Of a stretch of DNA of 64,000 nt, positions 2,311 through 44,769 are shown in pieces. This stretch comes from an uncultured Microbacteriaceae bacterium (GTDB taxonomy: Bacteria; Actinomycetota; Actinomycetes; Actinomycetales; Microbacteriaceae). Location: the NCBI GenBank assembly GCA_937872445.1, contig CALMSL010000193.1:1605-65604 (forward strand). Direction: 5' to 3'. Both the position numbers and the translations under genes were made by a program. Under the pieces are notes generated by a model, which was not told the origin of the DNA, searched no databases, and saw nothing but the letters and a program-made list of their open reading frames with translations. Within the stretch, counting starts at the first letter, position 1, and every line of letters starts with the position of its first letter.

Positions 2311-2538
2311 ATGTTGACGAATTCAAGGACTCCCGCACAAACTTGGTACTGGTGGTTAGTTCTTGTCGTGGCATTCGTATCAGCGAGCACAGCATCTGTG
2401 ATGGCCATTATGATCTTGTCGTCGCCCGGGAGCCTTGAAAGCCGTGCACTTTCCGTGGCGGTCAGTATCCCAGTTCTGATCATGCTCTTGTCACTTGTCT
2501 TCCTTTTCTTGACGAATAGAAGGAGAACAAAACCGTAA
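2311..2538 (+). CDS. Small two-TM membrane protein (75 aa), possible immunity-type partner
   Basis: The ATG at 2311 lies 7 nt after the upstream stop (2301-2303). Two hydrophobic helices (WYWWLVLVVAFVSASTASVMAIMIL and LSVAVSIPVLIMLLSLVFLFL) are followed by a basic tail NRRRTKP. Confidence 0.5.
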   Translation: MLTNSRTPAQTWYWWLVLVVAFVSASTASVMAIMILSSPGSLESRALSVAVSIPVLIMLLSLVFLFLTNRRRTKP

Positions 2539-2623
2539 TGGCATGACTATCAGATTCGTCGGCCGCTAACGTCGAACCTCGGCAAGCCGTTAGCCACAAC
2601 AGTCAATACGTGATTTAGACGCG

Positions 2624-3249
2624 CTAATGGATGGCTGTCGTGCTCAATCGCCGTTTGGGCGAATGCGCCTTATACGGCGAGACGGTGGGGTCTCCCGGGA
2701 TCCAGAACCGCCACGGAAACTCTTCCGTGCCGCCCTGGCCAGACACGCCCGTCCGCGGGCCCGTCGCCACCTCGGGTACTCCCCCGCCCAATTCCAGGCG
2801 GATGCGGCTCGACGCCAGGTCCGCGCCGCCGTCGGCGAGGGTGATCCCCGCCGCCACCGTGAGGCGTGCCGGGCCGCGAGCCAGATCCGCATCCGACCGT
2901 GACGTGTCGCGCCGAGACCTGGCCAGCTCGAGCCCCTCGACGATCTCTCCCGCGCGCAACAGGCACCCGGAAGCCTGCCCTTCCGGCCCGCACACCACAT
3001 TCGCGCACGTGTGCATGCCGTAGGTGAAATAGGTGTACAGGTGCCCGGGTTCGCCGAACATCACCGCATTGCGGTTCGTTTTGCCGCGGAACGCATGCGA
3101 TCCCGGATCTTCGGAACCGTGATATGCCTCCACCTCCGTGATCCGCAACGCCACCGTGCCGTCCGGCGAATCCACGGTGAGCACGGACCCGAGGATGAGC
3201 GATGCCACCTCGAAACTGGGCGGCAGAAGGAGAGAACGGTCGAGGGACA

Positions 3250-3250
<1 letters not shown>
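2624..3250 (-). CDS. mpg: DNA-3-methyladenine glycosylase (AAG/Mpg family)
   Basis: C-terminal 208 aa of ORF 2624..4129. Family motifs ITEVEAYHG, DPGSHAFRGKTNRN, MFGEPGHLYTYFTYGMH. The ATG at 3250-3248 overlaps the argH stop (ATGA). Confidence 0.9.
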
Positions 3251-5888
<2,638 letters not shown>

Positions 5889-41689: not shown

Positions 41690-42663
41690 CGTGTCGTTCC
41701 TGCAACCTTCGGTAGCGCCCCGCCGGCTGCCGCGTTGCGGTCCGGGCGGAAGTTCGTGAGGTCGAGGCCGGGGATCTGGTCGATCCGCGCGAGATCCTCC
41801 TCGATCTGGGCGGCCTCGAAATCCTCGGGGCCGACGAGGGGCAGTCGCACGCGCGGCGAATCGATCCGCCCCAATCCGTGCAGGATGTATTTGGCCGCGA
41901 CGGTGCCCGGCACGTGCGTCATGACAGCCCTGACGAGCGGTTCGAGGAGCCGGTGCGCCGCGGTCGCCTCGGCGAGCCGGCCCGCGTTGACGGCATCCAC
42001 GATCTGGCGATACGGGCGGGTCGCGATGTTCGCGGTGACCCCGACGAGTCCGGTGGCGCCGATCGACAGGTGCGGGAGGACGTTGGCGTCATCCCCGGAG
42101 AAGTACAGCAAATCGGTCTCGTTGAGCACGCGGCTGACCTGGCTGAAGTCGCCCTTGGCGTCCTTGATCCCCACGACGTTCGGGTGCTTCGCGATGCGGG
42201 TGATTGTCTCGTAGTTGATGGGAACTCCCGTGCGGCCCGGGATGTCGTACAGGATCACCGGAAGGTCCGTCGCGTCGGCGATGAGCCGGAAGTGGGTGAG
42301 GATGCCGGACTGCGTCGGCTTGTTGTAGTACGGCGTCACGATCATGACGCCGTCCGCACCGGCCTTCTCGCTGTCCCGGTAAAGCTGCATCGCGTGCGCG
42401 GTTTCGTTCGAGCCGCCGCCCGTGATGATCTTCGCGCGGCCGGCCGCGACCGACTTGCCGACCTCGACGAGCCTGACCTTTTCCGGGTCGGTGAGCGTGC
42501 TCGTCTCCCCCGTCGTACCGGACACGACGATACCGTCCGCGCCGTCCGTGATGACGTGGTCGATGTGCTTCTCGACCCCGGCCCAGTCCACTTCGCCATC
42601 GGCGTTGAACGGGGTCACCAGGGCGACGAGCACCTGGCCGAACGGATTCTCTCGAGTAGTCAC
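41686..42663 (-). CDS. dapA: 4-hydroxy-tetrahydrodipicolinate synthase
   Basis: 325 aa with GTTGE and the Schiff-base Lys region (GIKDAKGD). Its stop overlaps the rnj start. Confidence 0.95.
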   Translation of the reverse strand: MTTRENPFGQVLVALVTPFNADGEVDWAGVEKHIDHVITDGADGIVVSGTTGETSTLTDPEKVRLVEVGKSVAAGRAKIITGGGSNETAHAMQLYRDSEKAGADGVMIVTPYYNKPTQSGILTHFRLIADATDLPVILYDIPGRTGVPINYETITRIAKHPNVVGIKDAKGDFSQVSRVLNETDLLYFSGDDANVLPHLSIGATGLVGVTANIATRPYRQIVDAVNAGRLAEATAAHRLLEPLVRAVMTHVPGTVAAKYILHGLGRIDSPRVRLPLVGPEDFEAAQIEEDLARIDQIPGLDLTNFRPDRNAAAGGALPKVAGTTR

Positions 42664-42733
42664 GAGTTACAGGCTATCGCGAGGAGACCTCCGGCCCGCG
42701 CCGAGGGTGGGCTGACCGGCCGGGACAAGCACT

Positions 42734-42754
42734 CTACGGCGCGACGCGGCCGTT
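42734..42754. repeat. Left 21-bp direct repeat (orphan copy of the thyX 3' end)
   Basis: Identical to 44008-44028. It lies ~70 nt upstream of the dapA start codon. Confidence 0.9.
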
Positions 42755-42764
42755 CCCGCAATCA

Positions 42765-42845
42765 GTGTTGTGCAGGACATCCTGATGGGTGCGTGCGTGC
42801 GGGGAGCCAAAATTGACAAGTTTGGATGGATGTCCTGCACAACAC
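42765..42845. repeat. Perfect 18-bp inverted repeat pair (R1/R2) with 45-nt spacer
   Basis: GTGTTGTGCAGGACATCC (42765-82) and GGATGTCCTGCACAACAC (42828-45), lying 48 nt downstream of the DUF559 gene stop. Confidence 0.9.
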
Positions 42846-42892
42846 GATGGAGCGCGACGAGGTGGCTGCCTCCCTAATTGGTACAGCTGTCT

Positions 42893-43810
42893 TCAGCCGG
42901 GCTGATGATCGCCGCGAGACACAGCGGCCAAGATCGAACCCTCGACGGTTGGCCACTCATAGACGACCTGCGAATACATGAAACGCAGGACACGACACCC
43001 TCTCGCACTTAGTGCGGCATCCTTCTGACGATCCCGGTACGGATCACTGTGGAACTCCCGACTGTCAACCTCGATCACCAGCCGCTCCCCAATGAGGAAG
43101 TCAAGCGGCCCAACTCCACCCACGAAGGCTTGCTGGGTGAATCGAAGTCCCAGAGCGTGAAGATGCAGCTTCATGATTGATTCGGTTCCGCTGTCCGATC
43201 TGGTGGACGCGATTCGACCTAAGGGCCTGTCCGCAATCTTTAGCGAATTGAACACCAGTGTGCGATCCGACTGTGTCAGCTTTCGCTTTCGCAGAGCTGA
43301 CTCGAAGACGACAAATCCAGCTCCCCGCCCCTGGCACGCAAATGTCCGCACGATGCATTCGACGATCGATACCGCATGACGGTCGCCGCCGAGTCCGCTT
43401 CGACTCCAGTGGACCACAATTGCGTCGTCAGGATGAGCCGCAAGCCGTTTCCTGAAGTCATCTGCTGTGCGCAATCTGGATGCCCGCCGCGGCACAGCTA
43501 CATGCAAGCCCACGTGTTCCGGAACCCACAGTCCATGGTGAATAGAGCCACTCACGCAGGTCAATTTGCCGCCGATACGAAACGCGCGCAATGAAGGCTG
43601 CTTGCAATCGGAAATCGCGTACCAACCCTTTCTCACACGCAGAATCCGGCTGGCCTGGACTGCCGCGAATACGCTATCCGGAGAGTATCCGAGTCTGGCC
43701 AACTCGGAGGCCTTGGCGAACCCGCCAAGCTTCAGAATGTCCGCTTCAATGTGACTCATTTCCCAATCGTCGCCGTGGAAATTCGCTGTCAGCGGTTTTG
43801 CCGCATGCAC
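42893..43810 (-). CDS. wHTH (AbiEi-like N-terminal) + DUF559 (Vsr/restriction-endonuclease-like fold) protein
   Basis: 305-aa ORF from GTG at 43810 (alternative ATG at 43759, MSHIEADIL). N-terminus GFAKASELARLGYSPDSVFAAVQASRILRVRKGWYAI. C-terminus PLDFLIGERLVIEVDSREFHSDPYRDRQKDAALSARGCRVLRF, typical of DUF559. Confidence 0.8.
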   Translation of the reverse strand: MHAAKPLTANFHGDDWEMSHIEADILKLGGFAKASELARLGYSPDSVFAAVQASRILRVRKGWYAISDCKQPSLRAFRIGGKLTCVSGSIHHGLWVPEHVGLHVAVPRRASRLRTADDFRKRLAAHPDDAIVVHWSRSGLGGDRHAVSIVECIVRTFACQGRGAGFVVFESALRKRKLTQSDRTLVFNSLKIADRPLGRIASTRSDSGTESIMKLHLHALGLRFTQQAFVGGVGPLDFLIGERLVIEVDSREFHSDPYRDRQKDAALSARGCRVLRFMYSQVVYEWPTVEGSILAAVSRGDHQPG

Positions 43811-43823
43811 TGGGGATTACCCG

Positions 43824-43994
43824 GTTGTGCAGGACTTTGGAGGGAGTGGAGTTCAGTCTGGCGCTGCCCCCAGACGATTGTGCAGGACATTACGGGTACT
43901 GAATCCGCAAGGTCCTGTGGCGCGAGTAATTAATTGAGATTGTCCTGCAAAACACGTTTGGTGGCAGGGAGGGGACTGGAATGTCCTGCATAAC
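43824..43994. repeat. Array of four TGCAGGAC-core repeats (R3,R4 forward; R5,R6 reverse) in the DUF559 gene upstream region
   Basis: The cores are at 43828-35 (+), 43881-88 (+), 43942-49 (-) and 43983-90 (-). A degenerate copy sits at 43908-20. The nested convergent arrangement pairs R3/R6 and R4/R5. Confidence 0.85.
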
Positions 43995-44007
43995 TGGATG
44001 AGGGCGG

Positions 44008-44028
44008 CTACGGCGCGACGCGGCCGTT
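44008..44028. repeat. Right 21-bp direct repeat (functional thyX 3' end incl. stop codon)
   Basis: Its reverse complement AACGGCCGCGTCGCGCCGTAG encodes ...NGRVAP*. Confidence 0.9.
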
Positions 44029-44769
44029 TTCGTTGAACGCCGAGTAGGTGAGCGGCATGAGCTCGGCGAAGTGGGCTTCCATCTTCTCCGCGCACATCTC
44101 TATCTCCCGCTGCGGGAACGACGGGAAGTGGCTGCCCTCCCGTTTCGTGCGCAGCGACAGGAAATTCATGAGCGATCGCGCGTTCATGGTTACGTACATC
44201 GACGAGTAGATCGTGAGCGGGAGGACGATCCGGGCGACCTCGCGGGCGACCCCGGCCTCCAGCATCCGCTGGTACGCATCGTACGCGTGCTGCGACACGT
44301 CGCGGGTCTGCTGTTCGACGAGCGCGGTTTGCTCTGCGGACCCGGGGTGGAACTCGTACGCGCCTGGCTTTCCGGTCTGCAACAGGTTGCGCTCCGGAGA
44401 CGGAATGTAGAACACCGGGTTCAGTTCCCGGTAGCGACCGGATTCCTCGTTGTAGGAGGCGATGCGGTGGCGCATGAATTCGCGGAACACGAAGATCGGC
44501 GCTTGAACGTAGAACGTCATCGAGTTGTGCTCGAACGGGGATCCGTGGCGGTCACGCATGAGGTAGTTGATGAGGCCGCGGTTGCGCTTCTGATCCTGCT
44601 CCGTCTCGGCGCCGTCAAGCTGGCTGGACTCGAGCGTCTGCTCCCCCTGCGTCGACACGCGCGCGGCGAACAGCACGTCCGAGTCGTGCGCGCTCGACCG
44701 CACAAGTTCCACGGTGACATCGGAGCGAAACTGGATGGGCGGAACGGACTCTTCTGGCACGGAGTTCAC
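44008..44769 (-). CDS. thyX: FAD-dependent thymidylate synthase
   Basis: 253 aa with ThyX motif RHRIASYNEESGRY and a GTG start. Confidence 0.96.
   Translation of the reverse strand: MNSVPEESVPPIQFRSDVTVELVRSSAHDSDVLFAARVSTQGEQTLESSQLDGAETEQDQKRNRGLINYLMRDRHGSPFEHNSMTFYVQAPIFVFREFMRHRIASYNEESGRYRELNPVFYIPSPERNLLQTGKPGAYEFHPGSAEQTALVEQQTRDVSQHAYDAYQRMLEAGVAREVARIVLPLTIYSSMYVTMNARSLMNFLSLRTKREGSHFPSFPQREIEMCAEKMEAHFAELMPLTYSAFNENGRVAP

Follow-up and report, generated by a model that had tools for sequence, protein, structure and literature searches.

The 64-kb window analysed here, i.e. the whole stretch of 64,000 nt taken from contig CALMSL010000193.1 of an uncultured Microbacteriaceae bacterium, contains an inserted element between the genes thyX and dapA, in which an open reading frame (ORF) for a protein with a DUF559 nuclease domain is bracketed by six copies of a short repeat (R1 to R6). 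On the minus strand thyX is followed by the R6–R3 array, the DUF559 ORF, R2–R1 and dapA, and the features of the locus are listed below, where L128 denotes a metagenomic relative with an empty site.

42755–44007, minus strand: inserted element of 1,253 bp, with borders from the 21-bp repeat and the empty site L128
42734–42754, no strand assigned: left copy of the 21-bp direct repeat CTACGGCGCGACGCGGCCGTT, a non-coding duplicate of the thyX 3' end (100% identity, spacing 1274)
44008–44028, no strand assigned: right copy of the 21-bp direct repeat, the functional thyX 3' end (codons N-G-R-V-A-P and TAG)
42765–42845, no strand assigned: downstream (dapA-side) doublet module, consisting of R1 (42765–42782, plus), a 45-nt spacer and R2 (42828–42845, minus)
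43821–43997, no strand assigned: upstream (thyX-side) nested double module, consisting of R3 (43821–43838, plus), R4 (43875–43891, plus), R5 (43938–43955, minus) and R6 (43980–43997, minus)
42893–43810, minus strand: ORF for an AbiEi-like winged helix joined to a DUF559 (Vsr/I-Bth0305I-like) nuclease, 305 aa as listed and 288 aa from ATG 43759
44008–44769, minus strand: thyX, flavin-dependent thymidylate synthase (Pfam Thy1, E = 5.6e-53), with the element directly past its stop codon
41686–42663, minus strand: dapA, dihydrodipicolinate synthase, the downstream neighbour (Pfam DHDPS, E = 2.6e-82)

Both borders of the element follow from the comparison with L128, whose thyX and dapA are 95% and 88% identical to those of the window and lie ~40 bp apart, the repeat arms being absent. 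When the window was aligned to L128, its thyX end was followed by the element, then by the 21-mer once more, and after that by the original spacer and dapA, which is the classic signature of insertion with target duplication; judged from this alignment, the left 21-mer copy looks like a target-site duplication. In the composition profile, GC content was 56–59% in the element versus ~65% in its flanks. The ends of the element are imperfect inverted repeats of 26–28 nt (R1 end versus R6 end), CCCGCAATCAGTGTTGTGCAGGACAT and CCGCCCTCATCCAGTTATGCAGGACAT, and R1 starts 10 nt inward of the left 21-bp copy while R6 stops 10 nt inward of the right one. Among the ORFs of the insert only that for DUF559 has a family match, and no transposase or integrase was present near the modules among the ORFs of the locus. 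The original prediction had treated the region as an insertion, and the 21-bp duplication, the lower GC and the empty site L128 bear this out.

The invariant 8-mer of the repeats, TGCAGGAC, occurs exactly six times in the window, at 42771(+), 42832(−), 43828(+), 43881(+), 43942(−) and 43983(−), and nowhere else in the 64 kb. Shuffled sequence contained on average 2.1 copies per 64 kb, in line with the earlier estimate of about two, and the probability that six uniformly placed sites fall inside 1,220 bp by chance is ~1.5e-8, which upholds the claim that the cluster is a real signal. The 8-mer forms the core of 18–19-nt arms set as convergent doublets, one downstream of the DUF559 gene and two nested upstream, where R3–R6 occupy the space between thyX and the gene. 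The forward, forward, reverse, reverse order with R4/R5 nested within R3/R6 was thus described correctly, whereas the repeats proved not to be private to the upstream region, and the flank consensus GTGTTG...ATYC was replaced by the broader arm consensus CCyGTTGTGCAGGA(C/G)wTyC. R1 and R2 are perfect 18-nt inverted repeats of GTGTTGTGCAGGACATCC (100% complementary), and the distance between 8-mer cores is exactly 53 nt for R1/R2 and likewise for R4/R5. The array was folded as had been proposed: as single-stranded DNA, the R3–R6 stretch gave one long imperfect hairpin (z = −3.5), in which the inter-arm segments are complementary too, and R1/R2 gave a separate long hairpin (z = −3.7). The sequences following R2 and R5 are similar in direct orientation, indicating that one unit is present twice in the same orientation, as the downstream and as the inner upstream module. 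A degenerate seventh copy had been placed at 43908–20; it has two mismatches and lacks the flank consensus, and since chance alone would give ~1.6 matches of this quality there, it was dropped.

Regarding the protein, most of 36 aligned homologues begin at about residue M18 of the window sequence, so that ATG 43759 is the probable start codon rather than GTG 43810. The distance of 14 nt given earlier between R3 and the gene applies to the GTG; from the ATG, ~60 nt would lie between the start codon and R3. Pfam placed DUF559 at residues 220–297 (E = 1.9e-7), PADLOC gave weak AbiEi matches at residues 19–77, NCBIfam contained no matching family, and the sole match of a PDB sequence search was 3hrl (E = 0.28). 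An AlphaFold2 model built from 37 homologues was confident (predicted local distance difference test score 92.8), and when compared with the PDB by Foldseek its N-terminal part matched AbiEi (6y8q), while its C-terminal domain matched the catalytic domain of I-Bth0305I (3r3p; TM score 0.80, root-mean-square deviation 1.9), NGO0050 (3hrl) and Vsr (1cw0). Vsr, DUF559 and I-Bth0305I form one group of PD-(D/E)XK nucleases (PMC3424549). In this predicted fold the catalytic residues are intact: D237, D249, H254, D260, D264 and R276 are invariant, with the catalytic residues unchanged across the 37 homologues, indicating that the nuclease domain is probably active. The protein family comprises 2,216 clusters (50% identity) at E ≤ 1e-3 and 179 at E ≤ 1e-30, and homologues of the DUF559 protein are almost confined to Microbacteriaceae. 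When viral contigs were searched, 20 chance-like single-strand matches to the doublet pattern and three weak matches of the protein profile, to the nuclease domain, were obtained, so that no phage link was apparent there.

The content of the thyX–dapA gap was classified in 80 thyX loci recovered from metagenomes. The gap was empty (12–111 bp) in 48 of them, held a DUF559 gene in 9 and another insert in 9, and could be followed only to a contig end before dapA in the remaining 14; none of the 48 empty gaps contained arms. DUF559 homologues looked up at ≥43% identity all lay between thyX (or thyA-folA) and dapA, except L007. The occupied gaps include those of L001 (Terrimesophilobacter), L002, L060 (Cryobacterium), L123 (Naasia aerilata), L124, L125–127 and L161 among others, and remnants were seen as a pseudogene in L060 and as truncated copies in L195, L200 and L206. 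In most loci the element is oriented as thyX and dapA are, and the Naasia gene is inverted relative to dapA. This distribution is patchy and not clock-like: DUF559 identity did not correlate with the identity of thyX (Spearman −0.16) or dapA (0.14), and the hosts L171, L183 and L159, whose thyX proteins are 94–97% identical, carry DUF559 proteins of just 33–65% identity, the arms of L159 being different as well. Taken with the empty sites, this uncoupling from host identity indicates repeated gain or replacement at one site, not vertical descent. An ancient, vertically inherited resident gene was rejected as a candidate for the same reason, namely that DUF559 identity does not track the host genes.

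As a separate observation, the gap is a general variable spot. In some lineages a membrane permease-like gene of ~420 aa, SulP-like by eye, lies on the opposite strand at L136:5733–7097 and L152:4296–5627, and a GNAT acetyltransferase gene (L002:2157–2705) and a short-chain dehydrogenase gene (L123:5048–5815) are each parted from DUF559 by further modules.

The sequence of the arms goes with the variant of the gene. Canonical-type genes are flanked on either side by GTTGTGCAGGA modules in the window, L001, L002, L003, L007, L060, L124, L125–127 and L161, and among thyX–dapA gaps with canonical-type DUF559 the arms were present on both sides in 7/7, compared to 0/48 empty gaps, so that the co-occurrence of repeats and DUF559 genes proposed earlier is confirmed. 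Diverged genes carry flanking repeats of their own, most of them convergent arm pairs ~52–56 nt apart: for instance, CCAAATCAAGGAGA arms spaced by 52 nt on either side of the gene in Naasia (L123), TGTCGGTnnnGCAGACA arms in L171 and L183, tandem 19-mers containing CTGCAGG in L204, another arm type in L207, terminal inverted repeats of ~90 nt beginning with GTTCGCTCATTCGGA in L159, and two 85-nt modules (91% identical, 54-nt gap) in L232, a Microbacterium with the gene at a different locus. The two flanking modules of L161 and of L232 are near-identical direct copies. Three alternative arm patterns (the Naasia, L171/L183 and L159 types) each occurred solely beside their own gene variant among 230 loci. 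The strongest evidence comes from the comparison of L171/L183 with L159, in which different genes and different arms stand in nearly equal host backgrounds, indicating that the arms belong to the element and not to the host.

Several arm arrangements were observed besides these. L204 is an extreme case of 19-nt tandem arms, with seven of them (CCGCACGCCCTGCAGGCAC) upstream of a 39%-identical DUF559 gene and inverted copies downstream (L204:3494–3626 and 4755–4800). At L171:5727–5916, about ten copies of 16–20-nt tandem repeats (GCGCGTCCACCTGCCT-like) lie between the thyX stop codon and the upstream module. In L233, a metagenome-assembled genome (MAG) of Acidipropionibacterium, a 33%-identical homologue (gene 2501–3361) lies between map and infA in the ribosomal cluster secY-adk-map-infA; two strong palindromes with TCTGCCAC (L233:2285–2443) precede the gene, and a downstream repeat was not seen.

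When species-representative genomes were scanned with the doublet pattern, true palindromic doublets were found, among the matches listed, only in Microbacteriaceae-like genomes. To these matches belong a 2.8-Mb MAG (OY969722.1) with doublets in at least 12 separate 8-kb blocks, and several doublet-bearing contigs each from Galbitalea, Pseudolysinimonas, Rhodoglobus, Cryobacterium, Homoserinibacter and others. These orphan doublets are intergenic and mostly distant from any DUF559 gene. Over 56 modules, the inner-arm gap peaked sharply at 55–57 nt between 11-mers, and orphan arms were often tandem with an 18–19-nt period. No recurrent gene family was found beside the orphan doublets, hence no candidate for a hidden transposase. 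The original prediction had contrasted its view with that of a generic repetitive extragenic palindromic (REP) repeat, scattered over genomes with no tie to DUF559 genes; half of that picture was found, in that dispersed orphans lie far from DUF559, but the association with DUF559 genes is real. As an observation on the orphans themselves, 4–8 nt outside the arm core vary between copies yet are complementary within each copy (L074:3072–3166, L091:2143–2236 and L057:4307–4397; for example GCCGATGC...GCATCGGC), which suggests that pairing is under selection or that one arm was copied from its partner.

From these comparisons we consider it fairly probable that a site-specific selfish nuclease element has the repeats as its ends and recognition sequences, and orphan copies resembling REPINs (REP doublets forming hairpins); our confidence in the anatomy of the element is higher than that in the model as a whole. 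We infer its binding, cleavage, autoregulation, mobility and transposition chemistry as follows. The protein would recognise its own arms, and a dimer or a higher oligomer of it would bind the convergent arm pairs, whose core centres are ~61 bp from each other; this distance is comparable to the ~60-bp footprint of I-Bth0305I, a multidomain dimer (PMC3239194). Bound arm pairs would mark the ends of the element for the nuclease, and breaks made by it, together with host repair, could lead to insertion, replacement or copying, where the 21-bp duplication would result from a pair of nicks spaced by 21 nt at the thyX end. The upstream array, being a double set, probably doubles as an operator for autorepression, as in AbiEi, and the same protein may also recognise the solo doublets as non-autonomous relatives, in a relationship like that of REPINs with their REP-associated tyrosine transposase (RAYT). 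The insertion site would serve as a safe harbour, past the stop codon of an essential gene and upstream of a conserved box before dapA (GATAGCCTGTAACTCGTG).

Several results weigh against this model. The 21-bp duplication is clear only in this lineage, the left copy being present also in L003, where the right end is not covered; a clear duplication was absent at other occupied loci, with only an imperfect one in L007, and a search for remnants of a thyX-end duplication in L161 and L124 yielded a 7-mer or nothing convincing. Orphan doublets lacked a target duplication as well (no repeat of ≥7 bp in a consistent position), and within a genome their mean identity is ~64%, the spacers differing and the arms being kept. 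The orphans L019:6997–7093 and L120:5953–6048 share an orthologous position between neighbour genes that are 60–62% identical, with conserved arms and unrelated spacers, which implies very long persistence or a common insertion hot spot. Low identity and the orthologous position argue for long-lived, possibly host-maintained sites rather than recent transposition, and the orphans accordingly look old and maintained, nearer to REP sequences than to a recent burst of miniature inverted-repeat transposable elements (MITEs). In the 64-kb window orphan arms are absent, all arms being at the element. In the protein, the expected recognition helix (residues 44–52) is not conserved among homologues with the same arms, and the residues that co-vary with arm type (K61, W63 and 107–123) are inseparable from phylogeny. 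Finally, a hydrolytic nuclease cannot join DNA, so that transposition would need host functions.

Some of the same results would be expected if the repeats were a generic, REP-like host family that had gathered in dispensable DNA around an unrelated acquired gene and served the host by binding a nucleoid or other host protein, or by stabilising or insulating mRNA. Doublets with the same arms are indeed dispersed intergenically in several genera, mostly distant from DUF559, and have kept their arms while their spacers drifted to ~64% identity; one module is orthologous across deep divergence, and target duplications are absent from them. We nevertheless regard this explanation as unlikely, because modules stand on both sides of 7/7 canonical gap genes and in 0/48 empty gaps, and because hosts with 94–97% identical thyX carry different DUF559 variants with different arms. 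The confinement of three alternative arm patterns to their own genes among 230 loci and the enclosure of the whole module-gene-module unit within one 21-bp duplication speak against it as well.

A narrower role for the array is less probable still. If R3–R6 were purely an operator for AbiEi-like self-repression, without any part in mobility, the downstream and orphan copies would be incidental. AbiEi proteins and Rv2827c bind inverted repeats, sometimes two sets of them, in their own promoters (PMC7319586), and in the window the N-terminal domain is AbiEi-like and R3–R6 fill the space from thyX to the gene. However, almost all occupied loci (L233 being the exception) have a like module downstream of the gene, the outermost arm at either end is set 10 nt inward of the duplicated target, and the modules flanking the gene in L161 and L232 are near-identical direct copies. 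A scan for sigma-70-like promoters, which is weak for actinobacteria, found none in the array.

We give similarly little credence to the explanation that an unlinked transposase or recombinase mobilises the doublets as miniature transposable elements, with DUF559 as passive cargo in a composite transposon or cassette-like array. It would account for the terminal inverted repeats with a duplication and for the modules that also part the extra gap genes (the acetyltransferase of L002 and the dehydrogenase of L123), and there are published cases of restriction-modification genes with inverted repeats or long target duplications on their flanks (PMC2853133). On the other hand, DUF559 is the constant occupant and the arm sequence shifts with its variant, the surroundings of the modules contain no transposase, integrase or other recurrent gene, the solo modules neither have duplications nor are near-identical, and the arms do not match the integron attC core GTTRRRY. 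Last, that the modules are RNA structures (terminators, processing sites or insulators) which let a foreign gene sit in a thyX–dapA transcription unit is very improbable, since, for all their strong predicted hairpins and the co-orientation of the element with thyX and dapA in most loci, T-tract terminators are absent at the modules (the sole weak terminator-like site of the scan being the thyX end itself), an Rfam search of 42500–44200 at E ≤ 1 gave no match, the arm sequence and not pairing alone is conserved across genera, the inverted Naasia gene retains its modules, and dapA retains its own conserved upstream box.

The reading of the repeats as ends and recognition sites of a selfish nuclease element was then compared with known systems, among which REPIN/RAYT (PMC3116915, PMC3337134) is closest in layout. 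Common to both are short palindromic repeats arranged as spaced, hairpin-capable inverted doublets, orphan copies dispersed in intergenic DNA (here in related genomes), and a single gene bracketed by the same repeats, the sequence of which varies with the gene variant (non-canonical arms flank the gene in L123, L171, L183, L204, L207 and L232). In contrast to RAYT, the protein here combines a winged helix with a Vsr-like PD-(D/E)XK nuclease and is not an HUH tyrosine transposase of the IS200/IS605 type, so that the feature defining REPIN-RAYT is missing. Moreover, the gene here behaves as a site-specific insert that is exchanged horizontally and has a 21-bp duplication, whereas RAYT is a vertically inherited single-copy gene, and the orphans here are few, with none in the window, and their arms lack a GTAG/CGTC head. 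It is conceivable, though we hold this more doubtful than the model itself, that this is a second, independent REPIN-RAYT-like lifestyle, in which a winged helix with a Vsr-like (DUF559) nuclease recognises, maintains and spreads the doublets across genomes of actinobacteria, and its gene moves into the thyX–dapA gap as a site-specific cassette.

With Vsr-like (EDxHD) homing endonucleases such as I-Bth0305I (PMC3239194) the protein shares the best match of its nuclease fold (3r3p, TM score 0.80) and a multidomain build. Like free-standing homing endonuclease genes, its gene occupies one conserved site beside an essential gene with filled and empty alleles; as in a homing cycle, it is polymorphic for presence and absence, diverges rapidly and occurs in degenerate copies too. 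The differences are that no intron or intein is involved, that the N-terminal domain is AbiEi-like, and that the element has its own repeat modules and a 21-bp target duplication, neither of which results from break repair using the filled allele. AbiEi antitoxins of type IV AbiE systems (PMC7319586) have a similar N-terminal winged helix (6y8q), and the layout of their promoter repeats resembles R3–R6; here, however, an AbiEii (DUF1814) toxin partner is absent, the C-terminal domain is a nuclease, and the repeats occur also downstream and elsewhere in genomes. An AbiE toxin-antitoxin pair was ruled out because the gene stands alone between thyX and dapA. Restriction-modification units (PMC2853133) likewise place a gene of restriction-endonuclease fold between conserved genes without transposase or integrase, with imperfect inverted repeats and a direct target duplication overlapping a gene 3' end. 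They differ in that the present element has no methyltransferase, a duplication of 21 bp, below the 30-bp criterion of that study, and ends built as structured doublet modules that recur in other genomes.

The terminal inverted repeats and the target duplication are those of an insertion sequence, the duplication being unusually long, but a classical insertion sequence was ruled out since the insert encodes no recognised transposase (DDE, HUH, or serine or tyrosine recombinase). Tn7 inserts at attTn7, at the 3' end of glmS, a safe site past an essential conserved gene; its ends consist of several repeated protein-binding sites, unequal in number, and the PD-(D/E)XK nuclease TnsA takes part in its transposition. 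The element thus resembles Tn7 in its safe site past an essential gene and in unequal, repeat-built ends (here two versus four arms), but has no DDE transposase, target selector or ATPase, a 21-bp instead of a 5-bp duplication, convergent instead of direct sites, and a size ten times smaller. An integron cassette or attC site was ruled out as well, because GTTGTGC does not fit GTTRRRY and no integrase-like ORF lies beside the locus. Nested MITE-like hairpin units, another suggestion of the original prediction, describe the modules in part: they are hairpin-forming and MITE-like in build, but the orphans, in spite of their inverted arms, have no consistent duplication and no near-identical copies (~64% identity), and MITEs proper were therefore rejected.

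In the literature on DUF559, on Vsr-like mobile elements and on REP sequences in Microbacteriaceae, no description of such an element was found, so that a small selfish element repeatedly occupying the thyX–dapA gap in Microbacteriaceae is apparently undescribed. The family of DUF559 proteins with a fused AbiEi-like domain is sizeable and has no assigned function, and the present data point to a role in a minimal selfish element, which would encode no other protein and would have repeated sites recognised by that protein as its ends. Confirmation of this role would extend bacterial mobile DNA by a class relying on a nuclease only, which may be a counterpart of REPIN-RAYT systems without an HUH enzyme; were it truly a second solution of the REPIN-RAYT kind, a function would be given to part of the large uncharacterised AbiEi-DUF559 family. 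The model would also explain the REP-like repeat family of Microbacteriaceae as well as contigs that end in modules (L001, L002 and L003), and would make available a naturally occurring protein whose DNA target is long, modular and evolvable and which inserts at a defined safe site past an essential gene.

Contigs begin or end within a module at L001:1–110, L002:3931–4020 and L003:1–75, and many homologues are on contigs of 1.1–2 kb, which suggests that the repeats break short-read assemblies.

The conserved box GATAGCCTGTAACTCGTG in front of dapA lies at 42664–42685, before and including the dapA start codon, and was found in empty and occupied loci alike (also at L128:5753–5770, L124:5003–5019 and L161:2283–2300). 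It holds a −10-like hexamer, TAnnnT, 7 nt ahead of the GTG start of dapA, which, going by what is generally known of actinobacterial promoters, suggests that dapA has its own leaderless promoter. The box also loosely resembles an arm half-site (CCTG..TAAC), probably by coincidence.

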